Assembly (NCBI GenBank): GCA_963811105.1
Contig: CAWEPZ010000011.1
Span: 256,001 to 320,000 of the forward strand
DNA: 64,000 nucleotides
Reading direction: 5' to 3'
Source of the DNA: Candidatus Bathyarchaeota archaeon
Lineage (GTDB): Archaea; Thermoproteota; Bathyarchaeia; Bathyarchaeales; Bathycorpusculaceae
Position numbers and translations under genes: made by a program. Below, in pieces: positions 55,922 to 62,230 of this stretch. Each line of letters begins with the position of its first letter. Within the stretch, counting starts at the first letter, position 1. The notes beneath the pieces were generated by a model. That model was not told the origin of the DNA and ran no database searches. It was given only the letters and a program-made list of their open reading frames with translations.

Positions 55922-56350
55922 TTATGCTGGGTAGAAAACTCCAGTCATATAGATGTAGTACAAATCGGCAGGATGCCAGGCCTGCACAAGGCTCCCAATG
56001 GCAAAGAAACTGTAGCCATTTCCTGCAGTTACAGGAACTACTGCTTGTACAGACATAGGCCAATAAGTTGTTGTTTCATCTCCGATTGGTCCAGCAAATG
56101 TGTAAGAAAGGTTGGGATAAGCATTACTTGTCGTCCCAAGACCTAAACCTGCAATCGTGGAATCTCCACTCAGATCAGCCATAGCATTAACACTGAGTAC
56201 AACATAACCATTTGATGGCGCGGTTAAGGTCACGTTGGCAACAGTTTTGTAATCTGTGGATAGACTAATAAAACTATGAGCATAAGTGTCGTTATACATA
56301 ACTACGACGCCTGATGATCCAGTTGGTCCTGCTGGTCCTCGCGGTCTCAC
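55922..56350 (-). pseudogene. C-terminal fragment of a collagen-like surface or fibre protein
   Basis: Begins in Gly-X-Y triplets (RGPAGPTGSSG) followed by a beta-rich head; no signal peptide or longer collagen tract. Confidence 0.5.
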
Positions 56351-56729
56351 TGTTCCAGACTCTAAGAAGTACTGTTTTTTCCCATCTTTTTCTATGTTCT
56401 TTCAAAGCAAAGTTAGATTATTTTTATAGTTTAAAGTTTTTTGTGTTTTGTGGAGGCCTCTAGTTGCCTAGGGCTGGCTCTAAGCGCTACGGTGCAGCCC
56501 AGTTACTAGAGGAGTCCGTCTGTGAGTGTGGGTGTGAGTGTGAGTGTGTGGAGACGTTTTGCTGCCAAAGACGCCGCGACGTCACGCTTGATTTGTCTTT
56601 AGGGGAGAGGCCTTTGGGCAGTGTTGTTTCTGGGGTTCCGGTGTCTTGCAGTTGTCAGGTGGGCTGCAGCAAGGGCATCTTTTGTCTCTTGAAGGCTAAG
56701 CGTATTACTACGGGCAGGAGAGTGAGACG

Positions 56730-56966
56730 TTGAAGCAGATCTGTCTCTATGTTCCCAGGTTCTACATCGAGCTTCTTGATGAGGCAGTTGATTTGGGGTT
56801 TTATCCGAATAGAGCTGAGGCGATTCGGCTGGCCATCCGAGGGTTACTCTCTTCGCATGGCAAGTTTAGTGTGCATACGGATTATGAGCCGCCTGAAAAA
56901 ACTGTGTTGTTAGCGGTTGAGAAGCAGCTGGATGATATTGATGAGCGGAGGGCGGCTTTGTGGTGA
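56730..56966 (+). CDS. Ribbon-helix-helix (CopG/Arc/MetJ-like) regulator
   Basis: ICLYVP..YIELLDEAV..G.YPNRAEAIRLAIR.LL. Confidence 0.85.
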   Translation: MKQICLYVPRFYIELLDEAVDLGFYPNRAEAIRLAIRGLLSSHGKFSVHTDYEPPEKTVLLAVEKQLDDIDERRAALW

Positions 56967-57121
56967 ATCATCCTAAACGAAAGCTGGCTCCCGAGTGGGA
57001 GATTCATCTAAGCGAAAACTGTACAGTGACGCCGATGCAAATGGGCAGGACTCGCAGTGAGAAGTGCAGGCAAAGGCGACTTGAGGAAGAGGAGAATAAA
57101 AAAATACGGGAGGCTTCGTGA
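56963..57121 (+). CDS. Small hypothetical protein (52 aa, not in the ORF track)
   Basis: GTGA overlaps at both ends: MNHPKRKLAPEWEIH...KKIREAS. Confidence 0.45.
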   Translation: MNHPKRKLAPEWEIHLSENCTVTPMQMGRTRSEKCRQRRLEEEENKKIREAS

Positions 57122-57316
57122 GGTTGTTTTTTGGGAAGAGCTATCGGCGTTTCTATGGTGCCCTTTCGCGCTTCGGTGTATATACTGAGTATGAAGGGTC
57201 TGGTAATTCCCTGCAGGAAATCCAGAATAGAAGTCTCTATTTCAATGTTGATTGGGAAAATCTAAAGTTGACTATTTCTTGGCGGTTCTTGCGTTGGTTT
57301 TCTAGGAGGTCCAAAA

Positions 57317-57862
57317 GTGAAGCTTGAAGAGGCTTCGTTTTTAGCTGACGGGGTCCGCTGCGCTCTTAAGCCGTTTTGTGATCGTGTTGAAGTTGCTGGG
57401 TCCATTAGGCGCAAGAAAGCTGAGGTCGGCGACATCGACATTGTTGCCATGCCTAAGCCGTTAGCGTTGCCTGCTCCTTTACTCTTCGGCAGCGTAGTCC
57501 ACACTGAATCTTCGGTTTGGAAAGATCTTATTCCAGCTGCTCTCAAGAAACACGGTTTACGGCTTGAGGCCTCTGGCCAAGAGCTGCTTCGCGCTACTTT
57601 TCTATGTGACAGATTCCAAGTTGATATTTACCGGGCGCGTCCGGAGACCTGGGGCGTGATCCTGCTTGTCCGTACTGGCAGCAAGGACCATAATGTGAAA
57701 CTCTGCACTTTAGCGCGGTCTAAGGGCCTAAAACTTAGCGCCTCTGAGGGCGTAGTTACCCTAGGCGGCTTTGGCCAGGTTATCGCTTCTAGATCTGAAG
57801 AGGAGATTTTCTCAGCGTTAGGCATTAGTTACGTTGAACCGAATTGTAGGGAGGTTTTTTGA
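57317..57862 (+). CDS. Minimal family X DNA polymerase (palm and thumb only)
   Basis: AGSIRR...VGDIDIV, QVDIY, TGSKDHN..L...A..KGLKLS..G, SEEEIF.ALG..YVEP..RE. Confidence 0.85.
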   Translation: MKLEEASFLADGVRCALKPFCDRVEVAGSIRRKKAEVGDIDIVAMPKPLALPAPLLFGSVVHTESSVWKDLIPAALKKHGLRLEASGQELLRATFLCDRFQVDIYRARPETWGVILLVRTGSKDHNVKLCTLARSKGLKLSASEGVVTLGGFGQVIASRSEEEIFSALGISYVEPNCREVF

Positions 57863-58171
57863 ATGTGGGCATGTTTGAATGATGAAGGAAGAAAGGTTTG
57901 GGGCGATGTATTCCCAGACGGCAAAATTCCCGTGACCTCAATGGTTTTCCAAGAAACCAAGTTAGGACCTGGAAGTAAACGTGAGTGCGCTGTTTTAATT
58001 GTTTGGAGTGCGCTTTCGAAGGAAAAAAAAGATGCTATCTTAGCCAAAATTAGTGAGAGATTTGGGGCGCCCAAGGACCAAATTCTCAAGGATATTTTGA
58101 GGATTGGGCTGCCGCTGCGAGAATCTCTAACAACTGGAGTTATTGCTGCAGAGCTCAGGTGGTTCATCTGA
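57863..58171 (+). CDS. Hypothetical protein (element-borne)
   Basis: ATG immediately after the PolX stop. Confidence 0.6.
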   Translation: MWACLNDEGRKVWGDVFPDGKIPVTSMVFQETKLGPGSKRECAVLIVWSALSKEKKDAILAKISERFGAPKDQILKDILRIGLPLRESLTTGVIAAELRWFI

Positions 58172-58485
58172 TGGCTGAACTTGAGGAGTTTACGCTTCCC
58201 AAGTACGGCACCCTGGAATCGTCACGGCTCAGAAGCAAGAAGGCCTACGACCTAGTAAATTTAGTCAGCATAAAGTTTGGGGCATCAATAACCTGGAACA
58301 ATGCGAGCCGATTCAACACAATTAACCGAGTCCTCAAGCCTTCAATATTCTTCAGGTTTCATGGAAACAAATTCATGCCGTACCTAGAATTTCTCAGCGA
58401 TGACCTAGGGGTCCTGCGAGAAATCAAGGAAAGTTTTCCTGCCAATTTTGTTGGCGACGTCGAGATCAAGGGAGGCTTATTGTAG
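58159..58485 (+). CDS. Hypothetical protein (element-borne)
   Basis: Translationally coupled ORF. Confidence 0.5.
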   Translation: MVHLMAELEEFTLPKYGTLESSRLRSKKAYDLVNLVSIKFGASITWNNASRFNTINRVLKPSIFFRFHGNKFMPYLEFLSDDLGVLREIKESFPANFVGDVEIKGGLL

Positions 58486-58756
58486 AATGCCTAAATGGAC
58501 GCCTCCTTTCTTGGCTGACCGCGAGAAAGCAGTTGATCTCGGTAAATTTGCTAGCTGCAGTATTCGCCCTGAGGAGTCTTTGCCGCTGAACGCTTGTGAG
58601 TTTGCCGGTGCACTCCTCGAGTACACGCTGGGCGCTCGCAGCTGTTTCGCTGCCGATGGAACCTTCTGTCCCAAATCCAGTTTCGCCGATCCTTCCGTTT
58701 ATTGTTCATGCCCTACCCGGCTTGAAAAACTAAAAAATAGAAACGATCCGCCTTAA
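58448..58756 (+). CDS. Cys-rich hypothetical protein (likely start MPKW)
   Basis: Co-oriented ORF with several Cys, including C.CP. Confidence 0.45.
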   Translation: MLATSRSREAYCRMPKWTPPFLADREKAVDLGKFASCSIRPEESLPLNACEFAGALLEYTLGARSCFAADGTFCPKSSFADPSVYCSCPTRLEKLKNRNDPP

Positions 58757-58771
58757 CGGAGTTTATTTTTT

Positions 58772-59788
58772 TTGGCCGCCTCATCTGATAACTCCACAAA
58801 CACCTCTAGCAACACCAGTTTAAACAGTTTAGTTTCAAGCCGGAGCTGGAGCATTGAGAACCGAGTGTTCCATGTAATCGATGCTGCAGAAATTGAGCTG
58901 CGTCCTGCCGAGATTGCCCGTAAACTCCATGCTCCCAAGAAGCCAACGCGCGGCCAATACACAACTGTGCGAGGAGTTATCAGAAAACTCTTAGAAAAAG
59001 GCTTGATTCTGCAACCGTACCTTGGAAGTTACTGCAACAAAATCACATACGGGGTGCGGTTTAATCCGTTGGCAGTGCACAATATTTCTTTGCGGTCCTT
59101 TGTGTGTCAAGACATTAAGTCCTGGGAGAAAGACGAGTTTGTTGGTGGCGTGAAGATTCATGTCTGTTTTGGTGCTGAGCGGAGAAAGATTTCTGGCTAC
59201 ATTGCTTGTGACGTTGGTGGGATGAGTCATGATGCTTGTCTGTTGGCTTTGAATCGTTGGTTTGATATTACCCAGGATCATCTAGGTTGGCAACTTAATG
59301 ACTTGCAGATCCTAACTTTTGAGTGTAACAAAGATTACCATGGAATACGCGTTGATGGCCTGCAATGTATAACTAGGACAGATCTTTTCGGGATGATTGA
59401 GCGAGTCTATCAGAAAGAGGAGAACCTAGTTCGCAAAGAACAGAAAACTGTAGTCCCGATGAGTATTAACAAGTTTGAGGAAGCCATCGCCAAAGGCTTT
59501 AATGATTCAGCGAATTCTCAGGCAAATTTCGAGATAAGACGGGAAGTTAAAGGAAACTCTGATGCCTTAAAGTTCACCAATTCCCGGCTGCTGGGAATGG
59601 AGCGCTTACTCGAGGCTCTCTACAAGCATAAGGTTGCGGATATTGACAAGGTGAAGTGTTTGGAGGGTGAGGTAGCATTGCTGAGAACAGACGTAAACCT
59701 CATGACTTCTACTCTGCGAGAAATCTTCGCGCTGGACAATAACGGCCAAAAAGCGCCTAAGATTGGAGGCAACGATTATGTCAAGTAG
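58772..59788 (+). CDS. wHTH-fused candidate Rep_trans-like rolling-circle replication initiator
   Basis: N-terminal wHTH (LRPAEIARKL...VRGVIRKLLEKGLI); motif order ILTFECNKD...ERVYQKE...VRKE; C-terminal coiled coil. Confidence 0.5.
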   Translation: MAASSDNSTNTSSNTSLNSLVSSRSWSIENRVFHVIDAAEIELRPAEIARKLHAPKKPTRGQYTTVRGVIRKLLEKGLILQPYLGSYCNKITYGVRFNPLAVHNISLRSFVCQDIKSWEKDEFVGGVKIHVCFGAERRKISGYIACDVGGMSHDACLLALNRWFDITQDHLGWQLNDLQILTFECNKDYHGIRVDGLQCITRTDLFGMIERVYQKEENLVRKEQKTVVPMSINKFEEAIAKGFNDSANSQANFEIRREVKGNSDALKFTNSRLLGMERLLEALYKHKVADIDKVKCLEGEVALLRTDVNLMTSTLREIFALDNNGQKAPKIGGNDYVK

Positions 59789-60110
59789 ACGGCACCTGCT
59801 TAAGGGGCGCATTAATTTTCATGAGCGCGGCACCGGTGAGCAAGTCTACGATATTCTAAGTGCGCTGCGCAAGGCTCCTTTGCTGTCCACTCACATTATG
59901 TACCAGGCAAACTTGAACAGCACACTCCTGAAGGATCTTTTGGTTTACATGAGAAACGAGGGGTACATCGAGTATTTGACGGACTACCGGATCCGCTTAA
60001 CAGCGAAGGGCTACAAAACTCTCAGAGTTGTCACTCCCTTTTTTCTTGTCATCACTCGCATCCGTGACATAAGGCGAGAGGTAAGGCGCAGACAAAGGGA
60101 GGCTTCCTAA
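59778..60110 (+). CDS. Winged-helix regulator (HTH_45/COG3432-like)
   Basis: YDILSAL...THIMYQANLN...LL..M...GYI.....RLTAKG. Confidence 0.75.
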   Translation: MSSRRHLLKGRINFHERGTGEQVYDILSALRKAPLLSTHIMYQANLNSTLLKDLLVYMRNEGYIEYLTDYRIRLTAKGYKTLRVVTPFFLVITRIRDIRREVRRRQREAS

Positions 60111-60252
60111 TTGAGTAATTTTGGTGTTTCGGATAAAAAATGCTGTTTAAATGGCTTTTTTGGGGTAGTACGTACCTATGGGAAAAGTCCATGCTTTTTG
60201 GCATCGAGTTTTCTTATGCTGCCTAAGGTAGATTGGCAGACCCCAATTTTAC

Positions 60253-60831
60253 TTGACGTTAATGGAGGAGAATTCCTTGACTGAACAAAATAGACAGGAT
60301 CTAAGTCAAGAGGTTGTTCAAACACTCAAAAACAAGGCTGAAAAATCCAAAAAGAAGCGCAGCCAATCCCAAAAGGTCGGCACTAACAAATATGATCAAC
60401 AACTCATCAAACGTTGCCTAGTAGGCATTGAAGACATCAAGACTGAGCTGCGTTGGGCACGGGTTGAAAGGGAAAGAACTAGCGAGTCAAAATATTCTCC
60501 AGAAAGAATTGAGTACCATTCTAAGATGGATGATGTAGACAAAGAGATTGTTCAGAGGCTTTTTGAGGTTGGTGTAAACGGAGCGTTGCCTAAGGATGTG
60601 GCTGCCGAGGTTAACAAGCGTAATGGCTACAACTTGGAATATTACGAAGTTAGCCGCAGGCTAGTTCGGTTGAATAAGAAAATGCATTTTGAGACTGGCA
60701 AAACTCTGTTTGAGAAACATGGGCATCGATGGGCAATGAATAGGCTTGGTTTTGAGAGTTACGGCGCCGGCGATGTCGAGGCCCTGTCGAATGTTGACAG
60801 TTTAGTTTTCAATAACAGAGGGGAAGGATGA
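60253..60831 (+). CDS. Hypothetical protein with a probable C-terminal wHTH
   Basis: DDVDKEIVQRL...GALPKDVAAEV...VSRRLVRLN...LFEKHGHRW. Confidence 0.55.
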   Translation: MTLMEENSLTEQNRQDLSQEVVQTLKNKAEKSKKKRSQSQKVGTNKYDQQLIKRCLVGIEDIKTELRWARVERERTSESKYSPERIEYHSKMDDVDKEIVQRLFEVGVNGALPKDVAAEVNKRNGYNLEYYEVSRRLVRLNKKMHFETGKTLFEKHGHRWAMNRLGFESYGAGDVEALSNVDSLVFNNRGEG

Positions 60832-61118
60832 AGAAAACGAAAAAAACGAGGATTCTGACGGTTAATCTTGATTGGCTAGAGTTATTTGAGAAGCCAACTT
60901 CAGCTCATGAATTGTTTAAACATAGTTCTTACAGTTCCTACGCTGGAGCTCATAAACAAGTTCGCAGCCTTGAGCGTTTGGGGCTTATAGCTTTGACGGA
61001 TTCTGCGCTCAACTGTAAAGGTACTATTAAGAAGCTTTTTGTTTTAACTGATAAGGGGCGTTCGTTCCTTAGGCTTATTCCACCTGAAGCTTTGATTCAG
61101 GGTGAGGAGGACCCTTAG
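60828..61118 (+). CDS. Winged-helix protein (ArsR/PadR-like)
   Basis: PTSAHEL...AHKQVRSLERLGLI...FVLTDKGR. Confidence 0.65.
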   Translation: MKKTKKTRILTVNLDWLELFEKPTSAHELFKHSSYSSYAGAHKQVRSLERLGLIALTDSALNCKGTIKKLFVLTDKGRSFLRLIPPEALIQGEEDP

Positions 61119-61120
61119 TT

Positions 61121-61315
61121 TTGGTGAATTGTGCTTGTGGTTTGACTGCTCGTGAACGGGAGATTTTGCGGCTAGCGGCTTTGGGTTTGACTGATTATAA
61201 GATTGCTCGTAAACTAAGAGTTGAGGCGCCCAACGTTACTCGTTCCCGGTTGAATGCAATTAAGAAGATTGAGAGGGCCAAGGCGGACTTGGCGTTTTTC
61301 GACGGTTTGGGCTAG
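61121..61315 (+). CDS. LuxR-type HTH protein
   Basis: LTAREREILRLAALGLTDYKIARKL.V...V. Confidence 0.8.
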   Translation: MVNCACGLTAREREILRLAALGLTDYKIARKLRVEAPNVTRSRLNAIKKIERAKADLAFFDGLG

Positions 61316-61825
61316 GAGGTATCGAAGGTTAATCTGATTAGTAAAACAAAGAAACCTTGACTAATCACTTCGAGCTTAGTTGAAGATGTTTGACGAATAA
61401 ACTTTTAAGGTAAAATCAAACTAACAGTTGTTTGGCTATTATTAAAAGAATTAAGGTGTTGGCAACTGTTTTATCAGTATTTCTTCTTGCAGGTAGCTCA
61501 CTAATTTTTGCGGATGCTAACTTCACTTCTCCAACTTATCTGCCAGTTTCGTTTTCAAGACCCATGGTTTCAGGGCACAAACACTCCATGTTTCGCTTGT
61601 TCCTCCAAATCTCTCAACCAGCACCTGATTACTCCTCTTTGCAGTTCCTATTTGGAACTGAGGTTGCAGTAACCACAACTGACGGTATGATTGACGGCAA
61701 CTGGCTCCTAGATACATTTGAGGCTTCAAGAGATAACCCGTACCCTAACTGGGACTGCACTATCATGCTGATAAAAAGGAGCAAAAACATAGTTTATGGC
61801 TAAGTGGGGAAATCAAATAGTCAAC

Positions 61826-62230
61826 ACTGGGAGTCATTTGGCGTCTTGGGCGGGTTTGGCGCCATCGGTTTATCAGTCTGCGGGCGTGTTTGTTACGGGT
61901 CATATTACGAAGAAGGGTTCTAAGTGGCTTAGGCATGTTATGGTTGAAGTGGCTCATGTTGCCGTGAGGGTTAGGAGTTCGCGGTTGCGGGCGTTTTATT
62001 TGAGGAAGAAGGCTAGGAAGGGTGAGAAGATTGCTGTTGTGGCTGTTGCTAGGAAGATGTTGACGGTTATTTGGCATTTGCTGAAGGAAGGTGAGATGTA
62101 TGTTGATGACGTGTTTGGGAAGAAGGTCAAAGGAGTGAAGGTTGCGTATTGTGGGCATGTTTCTTTAGATGAGATGGCTAGGATTTTGCGTGAGGCTGGA
62201 TTCATGGTGTTGGGTGGTTCGGACGGCTGA
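61826..62230 (+). mobile_element. IS110-family transposase, C-terminal fragment only
   Basis: HLASWAGLAPSVYQSAG, GHITKKGSKWLR, AVVAVARKML..IWHLL; RuvC domain absent. Confidence 0.85.

Follow-up and report, generated by a model that had tools for sequence, protein, structure and literature searches.

We examined a gene island within a 64,000-nucleotide stretch of a Candidatus Bathyarchaeota archaeon genome (hereafter the window: positions 256001-320000 of contig C11, in a genome of 3.49 Mb and 15 contigs). The island comprises 13 open reading frames (ORFs; numbered o1 to o13) that occupy 56464-61315 on one strand, most of them overlapping by a few bases, in agreement with the tightly coupled 13-gene run described in the initial annotation. 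The GC content rises from 0.36-0.40 at 50-56 kb to 0.46-0.48 at 56-60 kb, and similarity to other copies in the same genome places the ends of the island at about 56458-56541 (left) and 61506-61585 (right). The genes include a family-X DNA polymerase (PolX) of 181 amino acids (aa), several small regulators and a 338-aa protein with an N-terminal winged helix-turn-helix (wHTH). Among the gene identities proposed initially, PolX, an HTH_45 protein and a GerE-type helix-turn-helix (HTH) protein were recovered with Pfam, whereas the ribbon-helix-helix (RHH) protein and one further wHTH stayed below the cut-offs. We favour, with moderate confidence, the reading that the island is the early module of a Caudoviricetes-type provirus and that its 338-aa protein is a miniature replication initiator of the TATA-binding protein (TBP) fold, similar to Rep_trans, which would nick DNA for rolling-circle synthesis.

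The module recurs, whole or in part, at six further places in the same genome. Near-complete copies were found on contigs C3 (37.3-42.4 kb) and C4 (6.4-11.2 kb) and partial ones on C15, C10, C2 and at the end of C11, with 65-92% nucleotide identity to the window. Some genes are broken in these other copies (PolX on C4 and C12, o11 on C3, and the gene of the 338-aa protein, hereafter the Rep-like gene, at C11:956.6 kb). In the flanks of the sister copies, module ORFs left out, the scan covered 21/27 ORFs for C4, 23/34 for C3 and 10/17 for C15; downstream of the C3 and C4 copies we detected a portal (split into two ORFs), DUF2213, a minor capsid protein and a HK97/linocin-like capsid. No terminase, portal or HK97-fold capsid gene was found in the window copy with Pfam and PHROGs. 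Relatives of the 338-aa protein are also encoded by five IMG/VR contigs (L017-L021). Three of the four that were scanned (L020 was left out as a near twin of L019) carry a large terminase and a portal downstream, and L021 adds cement and capsid proteins; this contig was rated 100% complete, and genes for tail tube, head-tail connector and HK97-gp10-like proteins lie in its other half.

In the fuller sister copies and the IMG/VR contigs, genes for terminase, portal and HK97-type capsid follow the module; the window therefore holds an early module only and not a small rolling-circle plasmid. The block is a decayed head-tailed (Caudoviricetes-type) provirus remnant that has lost its morphogenesis genes and ends before an IS110 fragment (Table 1). 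The earlier idea of a truncated, plasmid-like rolling-circle element was thus half right: multiple copies, patchy presence and sister copies with virion genes bear out a mobile and truncated element, and its plasmid-like character gives way to that of a provirus with terminase, portal and HK97 capsid.

Table 1. Features of the island and its surroundings, in window coordinates unless a locus is named.
Feature	Coordinates	Strand	Evidence
Provirus remnant: early (regulation/replication) module of a head-tailed Bathyarchaeia virus, without morphogenesis genes	56455..61585	+	Intragenome similarity, raised GC, sister copies
o1, 89 aa, Cys-rich, left end of element	56464..56733	+	52-80% aa identity in C2, C3, C4, C10 and C15 copies
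o2, probable RHH regulator	56730..56966	+	RHH_8 E 1.6e-3 and RHH_1 E 0.018, both under cut-off
o3 (56960-57121) and o4 (57118-57327), small ORFs without assigned role	56960..57327	+	Copy comparison
Minimal PolX, palm and thumb only, 181 aa (from sequence)	57317..57862	+	Pfam thumb, Thermus PolX alignment, invariant residues
o6, o7 and o8, three ORFs of ~100 aa without family	57863..58756	+	Kept in C3 and C4; partly in C2, C10, C15 and C11 end
Rep_trans-like candidate initiator, 338 aa	58772..59788	+	AlphaFold2 model, Foldseek and VIA-align matches, residue conservation
Nucleotide-level conserved element, codons 8-24 of Rep-like gene	58793..58843	.	Drop in synonymous entropy
Palindrome CAGTTTAAACAG, then repeated AACAGTT half-site	58816-58827	.	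Within the codons 8-24 element
Second stretch of low synonymous diversity, codons 86-99	59027..59068	.	Window means 0.26-0.32 vs 0.70
o10, winged-helix regulator	59763..60110	+	HTH_45 E 1.1e-10
o11, 192-aa conserved partner, downstream of Rep-like gene	60253..60831	+	tblastn relatives near other Rep-like genes
o12 (weak wHTH) and o13 (LuxR/GerE-type HTH)	60828..61315	+	o12 HTH_45 E 0.028, below Pfam cut-off; o13 GerE E 2.1e-7
8-bp inverted pair AACAGTTG / CAACTGTT, half-site same as in the Rep-like gene's 5' element	61423..61470	.	4 occurrences in 56000-62000 vs 0.84 expected
IS110-family transposase, C-terminal fragment, past right end	61796..62230	+	Transposase_20 E 1.3e-13, phrog_2199
Provirus left ends adjoining tRNA genes	L009:11298-11374, L012:11037-11115, L013:9140-9217; also L034, L035, L046, L048, L069

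Fold and candidate active site of the 338-aa protein

We found 197 relatives of the 338-aa protein in a word-indexed search and 335 cluster representatives (E<=1e-3) in an exhaustive profile search; the relatives are labelled Bathyarchaeota. Modelling from a shallow alignment reached a pLDDT of only 60; an alignment of 72 sequences, reaching down to ~20% identity, gave an AlphaFold2 model with a mean pLDDT of 86, which was used instead. The model consists of a wHTH (residues 25-94), a TBP-like core of ~145 aa (residues 98-243) built as four strands, a helix, four strands and a helix, and a long helix of ~80 residues (243-325). The core forms a crescent beta-sheet whose two pseudo-symmetric modules have TBP connectivity, as in Rep_trans, and in the fold searches (Foldseek, VIA-align) TBPs were returned together with Rep_trans initiators (RepDE 4CWC and inovirus Reps). 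The winged helix accounted for most of the matches in the wide VIA-align search.

No Pfam model detects the TBP-like core. The 338-aa protein itself had no match to PF02486 at the gathering score, and among the Pfam families listed (25/70) for the 72 relatives there was neither Rep_trans nor any family beyond the N-terminal HTH. Profile searches against PDB sequences gave wHTH and coiled-coil matches only; no match was found in PHROGs or by tblastn against 50,697 phage records, and the best ESM Atlas score (0.76) gave nothing usable.

For the candidate active site, we compared the family with a Rep_trans alignment of pC221 RepD, four close relatives and five divergent plasmid Reps (RepD numbering, which is RepDE minus three). 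In that alignment A141, D143, T173, Y175, G177, S181, Y188, N189, K190, E193, R209, E211 and L214 are invariant, and R137, D139 and R186 are nearly so. The motif equivalence was based on RepD R186, Y188, K190, T173, R209 and E211 and on the strand assignments in passages of PMC4797284. In the 338-aa family, Y213, R221 and E223 are each conserved in 72/72 sequences and D188 in 70/72, followed by T201 (69/72, plus 3 Ser), K215 (66/72, plus 5 Arg), E184 (65/72), G196 (64/72), R193 (60/72) and R211 (55/72, plus 16 Lys). On the tyrosine strand the consensus reads [RK]-[IVL]-Y-[QN]-K, and the conserved residues follow one another as in Rep_trans over the four successive strands that make up the second half-sheet. 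The R-x-Y-x-K strand, the Thr of the preceding strand and the R-x-E of the next one were all found, at the level of motif and secondary structure only; of the three carboxylate metal ligands that Rep_trans has on separate strands, ~5 A from the Tyr, E184, D188 and E223 fit two.

The initial annotation had noticed motifs of this protein in the Rep_trans order, and had proposed a structure model and the conservation of the tyrosine as checks. The motifs map onto the Rep_trans catalytic strands at the level just given, the model has the fold class of Rep_trans (a TBP-like sheet), and Y213 is invariant. No statistically significant sequence similarity to Rep_trans was found with hidden Markov models (HMMs), core segments or hhalign. 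On the model, the 338-aa protein would work like a member of Rep_trans or of Rep-Arvir, the related archaeal family discussed below, yet it cannot be filed as either, because sequence statistics show no relationship.

A conserved DNA element within the Rep-like gene

We measured normalised synonymous entropy in a codon alignment of 61 genes, reduced to 38 sequences of <90% identity. The gene mean was 0.70 and the mean of codons 11-20 was 0.17, a value reached in 0 of 2000 permutations, with low entropy across codons 8-24; residues 5-20 are conserved though predicted to be disordered. Four neighbouring gene families showed no 5' dip (means of 0.66-0.76 for the first 15 codons) in a scan that covered six of nine families, and a known overlap of ABC-ATPase and GNAT genes was detected by the same approach. 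In the second stretch of low diversity (codons 86-99), rare codons such as CGG are fixed. The o11-like genes (60253-60831 and relatives, cluster cl4) have a 5' synonymous dip of their own (first 15 codons 0.36, minimum 0.31, permutation p 0.002), which hints at a second embedded cis-element.

The core GT[TG]NNAAC of the 5' element is present in 58/58 loci. Its central dinucleotide is TA in 26, GC in 19 and AT in 10, so that the core is self-complementary in 55/58 loci and in 17/19 distinct variants, counts that overstate independence because the loci are related. The encoded residue varies between Leu, Cys and Tyr, and it is the symmetry-keeping codon that is used (TGC 19 vs TGT 2, TAT 10 vs TAC 1, TTA 26 vs TTG 0). 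Such a palindrome kept at codon level is an example of a cis-element shaping a coding sequence. We regard the element as a candidate site at which a dimeric protein would bind the duplex; the initiator is the simplest choice for that protein, and the element may also belong to the origin. In pT181 repC, phiX174 gene A and P2 gene A, the origin is known to lie within the gene of the initiator. The inverted pair at the right end of the island may, on weak grounds, be a related site.

Two other descriptions of the 5' element were rejected. An origin hairpin was not found with alifold, and 148/200 shuffles fold as well; the motif is not unique in the genome, where its degenerate form has 69 matches vs 30-43 in shuffles.

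Several observations weigh against a Rep_trans-like initiator. TBP, a non-enzyme, matches the model as well as or better than RepDE does, and RepDE is not among the best 50 matches in either VIA-align listing, an absence from a list that does not speak for a different fold. The sheet is built of 4+4 strands where Rep_trans has 5+5, and strand 1 carries H103 (56 H, 15 Q) and N104 (59 N, 5 D) where Rep_trans has Asp46. The HMMs of Rep_trans and DUF7845 found nothing in the genome at E<=10, while a Haloferax control was matched for DUF7845. Likewise, 0/7 core-only segments matched any relevant family at E<=10, and hhalign to the 10-sequence Rep_trans alignment gave a probability of 0.3%, with ERVYQKE/IRIYNKK as the best local alignment. 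Finally, the conserved DNA element forms no hairpin, its degenerate motif is not rare genome-wide, and known Rep_trans and RepSNJ2 origins use hairpins.

Three module copies hold a different protein in the initiator slot (C2, L013:10514-11356; C10, ~9.3-10.2 kb; C11, ~1496.2-1497.1 kb). The C2 ORF has 280 aa and the open frames 314-334 aa. These proteins have the N-terminal wHTH and the last ~46 residues in common with the 338-aa protein and an unrelated core (hhalign probability 0.9%; no Pfam match), which looks like a cassette exchange of a catalytic or specificity core.

Some of these data would also suit a non-catalytic wHTH and TBP-like regulator (repressor or activator), with the palindrome as its autoregulatory operator and another, unrecognised protein to start replication. 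We consider this unlikely, but it deserves to be taken seriously: TBPs are the top fold matches, the DNA element is a duplex-type palindrome and not a hairpin, the module is rich in regulators, and the exchange of the core between the same wHTH and tail in three copies recalls immunity-type cassettes. A surface that only binds DNA, however, would not be expected to carry the carboxylates E184, D188 and E223 and a basic-flanked invariant Tyr on adjacent strands, the conserved residues match the Rep_trans catalytic set, and the complete relative shows no other evident replication protein.

Insertion sites, distribution and accompanying genes

We found 52 Rep-like loci in species-representative genomes, of which 49 are labelled Bathyarchaeota, Bathyarchaeia or Bathycorpusculum and one Crenarchaeota. 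The other two lie in bacterial-labelled metagenome-assembled genomes (L064 and L072, labelled Alphaproteobacteria and delta proteobacterium) and are probably binning errors. Terminase or portal genes were detected in 18 of the 38 loci having at least 9 kb of downstream sequence. The family is patchy, with 14/201 sampled genomes of the class and 4/11 other genomes of the genus. Among the sequencing runs listed as matches, each had at most 12% of the sampled words and none was an RNA run.

A tRNA gene adjoins three of the six copies in the source genome (Asn-GTT, Arg-TCG and Arg-TCT). Elsewhere, a tRNA lies at most 3.7 kb upstream in 13/52 loci, five of these being tRNA-Asn(GTT), and the Rep-like gene is often 0.2-0.6 kb from a tRNA at the provirus edge. 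A radical-SAM/POR operon often lies beyond tRNA-Asn(GTT), a recurrent insertion site in several Bathyarchaeota genomes. No PF00589 tyrosine integrase was found in the five related IMG/VR contigs, one of them rated 100% complete, though divergent archaeal integrases may escape PF00589. The complete viral genome encodes a 309-aa protein with a resolvase-type HTH and a 394-aa protein without Pfam match, either of which could be its recombinase.

The proximity to tRNA genes and the absence of a PF00589 match in the IMG/VR contigs could suggest that the 338-aa protein is a Rep_trans-like transesterase for integration and excision or for transfer (relaxase-like), and not for vegetative replication; Rep_trans does include relaxases of conjugative transposons, according to passages of PMC4797284. 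We find this improbable, since the elements bear terminase, portal, capsid and tail genes and not conjugation genes, and the two proteins of the complete genome, or an integrase too divergent for PF00589, offer other candidates. Insertion at tRNA genes is moreover typical of tyrosine or serine recombinases. Nor do we give much credence at all to a host chromosomal cluster of paralogous genes: several loci in different genomes do have the same flanks (tRNA-Asn, radical SAM and POR operon, or large sensor kinases) and most ORFs of the window copy are intact, but even within the genus only some genomes have the block, it runs directly into virion genes, each genome has multiple diverged and partly broken copies, the GC content deviates, and the flank recurs because insertion takes place next to tRNA-Asn.

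The 181-aa protein matches the Pfam thumb with E 2e-15 (56.8 bits vs a cut-off of 25) and the palm with E 9e-4, and it aligns to residues 172-203 and 226-315 of Thermus PolX (TthPolX), that is, to palm and thumb only. The GS motif (G28, S29) and the three catalytic Asp (D39, D41, D103) are invariant in 34/34 aligned sequences. The 8-kDa, fingers and PHP domains of prokaryotic PolX were not found in it. The protein starts at the palm, and its stand-alone relatives, at least 202 in metagenomes, have 122-203 aa among the 120 listed; by its sequence it is therefore a genuine minimal PolX with an intact catalytic triad. In the source genome PolX lies near the Rep-like gene in the window and on C3, C4 (frameshifted) and C15. 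In other genomes only 2/51 loci (2/43 with at least 3 kb upstream) have a PolX within 10 kb of the Rep-like gene, and 0/5 IMG/VR contigs do. PolX is a lineage-specific accessory, not a partner of the initiator; a role in gap filling or repair is plausible.

The initial annotation had treated the pairing of PolX and initiator as a feature of the system and had asked whether the gene order is kept in other archaeal genomes and IMG/VR. There the Rep-like gene lies with virion genes in part of the loci and with o11 in 19/51, and the PolX pairing is not a conserved feature. Patchy presence, continuity with virion genes and tRNA-side insertion also place the homologues in mobile elements, as had been anticipated, and not in stable chromosomal loci.

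The genome also encodes another type of stand-alone mini-PolX, of ~190 aa and with 33% identity to that of the window, at C2:648501-648986 (-) and C11:805995-806480 (-), with a pseudogene at C1:54163-54348. It lies in a two-gene cassette of ~940 bp among PQQ beta-propeller surface proteins and AsnC regulators, and no virus genes were seen near it.

As for the remaining ORFs, o2 is kept in the C2, C3 and C4 copies and o3 in C3 and C4, while o4 matches the window alone. No Pfam match was found for o1 and o11, and none above the cut-off for o6, o7 and o8. The relatives of o11 found by tblastn in other genomes are on the same strand as the Rep-like gene, at a median of ~1.1 kb downstream. Past the right end, the ORF of the IS110 fragment covers only positions 28-86 of the Transposase_20 profile and 243-348 of the 356 positions of phrog_2199. 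Just left of the island, a 142-aa ORF (55922-56350, -) combines a collagen-like N-terminus (GPxG) with a beta-rich C-terminus; no Pfam family matches it, and the genome contains no second copy. Two observations concern related loci. A TIR-domain protein with HEAT repeats (L018:4809-5933, -; TIR_2 E 4e-20) is encoded upstream of the early module in a related provirus and is possibly defence or counter-defence cargo. A canonical TBP gene (PF00352, E 2e-37; cluster cl32, e.g. L068:8239-8850) lies ~1.3 kb downstream of the Rep-like gene in five loci.

Proposed mechanism and comparison with known systems

Under the favoured reading, a virus would have integrated in a Bathyarchaeia chromosome and subsequently lost its packaging and virion genes. 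The early module left behind would provide small repressor-like proteins (RHH, wHTH and LuxR-HTH), the accessory minimal PolX and the replication initiator. The initiator would dimerise via its long C-terminal helix, and its N-terminal winged helix may bind the two-fold symmetric site that its own gene carries at the 5' end. The eight-stranded sheet would then present Tyr213, flanked by R211 and K215, with T201 and the carboxylates E184/D188 and E223, and H103/N104 would stand at the position of the third metal ligand of Rep_trans. Nicking of one strand would yield a 3'-OH for host polymerases, rolling-circle (sigma) synthesis would make concatemers for the terminase, and PolX might fill gaps or repair.

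More tentatively, and with rather less than an even chance in our judgement, these proteins may form a third, minimal family of TBP-fold/Rep_trans-like tyrosine nickases, the first assigned to tailed archaeal viruses. They would initiate rolling-circle replication at a site within the opening ~25 codons of their own gene, so that the DNA site, and not the function of the protein, would determine the sequence of the disordered N-terminal peptide. To our knowledge, the replication of tailed viruses of uncultured archaea such as Bathyarchaeia is largely unknown. A survey of archaeal viruses, in passages of PMC10848311, reports PolB/MCM-type modules in one family. A literature search with supplements outside its scope gave no description of the 338-aa family, and none of a tailed archaeal virus with a Rep_trans-like protein; Thermoproteota homologues may be among the entries of Tables S4-S6 of PMC13107129.

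PolX has counterparts in other viruses. African swine fever virus Pol X is also virus-encoded, reduced to palm and thumb and of similar length (174 aa), and a few large bacteriophages (e.g. Yersinia phage YerA41) carry small palm-and-thumb PolX genes of similar length with 25-32% identity in tblastn. The PolX described here differs from both in belonging to an archaeal provirus and to its own family of at least 202 metagenome proteins.

Among initiators, the gpA proteins of P2 and phiX174 (HUH initiators) are nickases that start phage rolling-circle replication from an origin inside their own gene. P2 is a tailed dsDNA phage of a size similar to the elements here, but the fold and chemistry (HUH motif) of gpA are unrelated to the 338-aa protein. 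TBP, at 6-15% identity, lacks the wHTH and the coiled coil as well as any catalytic Tyr or carboxylate set.

The Rep_trans initiators (PF02486; RepC/RepD of pT181/pC221, RepSTK1 and RstA of CTXphi; 4CWC) resemble the 338-aa protein in their crescent TBP-like beta-sheet, in the nucleophile Tyr of an R-x-Y-x-K strand with a Thr strand before it, an R-x-E strand after it and an acidic x-x-D strand opening the second half, and in having a separate DNA-binding domain; they are dimers, as the 338-aa protein may be. Sequence homology is undetectable, however, and the Rep_trans core is larger (~200 aa and 5+5 strands vs ~145 aa and 4+4). The Rep_trans DNA-binding domain is C-terminal and helical, whereas here the wHTH is N-terminal and an extra long helix stands at the C-terminus. 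Rep_trans has Asp as its third metal ligand and the 338-aa protein H/Q-N, and in place of an origin hairpin there is a palindrome as candidate site. The replicon, a tailed archaeal virus of ~30-40 kb, is also unlike those of Rep_trans.

If the favoured reading is true, a family of at least 335 cluster representatives without a Pfam model gains a testable biochemical function, and the compact core with its ~50-nt candidate site makes a simple system for nicking assays and possibly vectors.

The nearest described system is Rep-Arvir (DUF7845, PF25227), shown in 2026 to be Rep_trans-like by structure only, with an essential Tyr and two essential Glu (passages of PMC13107129). As described there for members such as RepSNJ2 of the pleolipovirus SNJ2, it shares with the 338-aa protein the class of archaeal mobile-element initiator, the TBP-like fold, a wHTH, an invariant Tyr and a gene at the provirus edge, and its essential Glu residues have conserved Glu as counterparts here. 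A term search of PMC13107129 gave no mention of 'tailed', 'Caudoviricetes' or 'Bathyarchae'. According to the same passages, Rep-Arvir has an N-terminal catalytic domain of ~300 aa, a central wHTH and a KHYYM motif, whereas here the domain order is reversed with the wHTH first, the core has ~145 aa, the motif is R-[IVL]-Y-[QN]-K, and the PF25227 HMM is unmatched. If the favoured reading holds, the archaeal Rep_trans-like branch represented by Rep-Arvir would extend to a different architecture and to Duplodnaviria.

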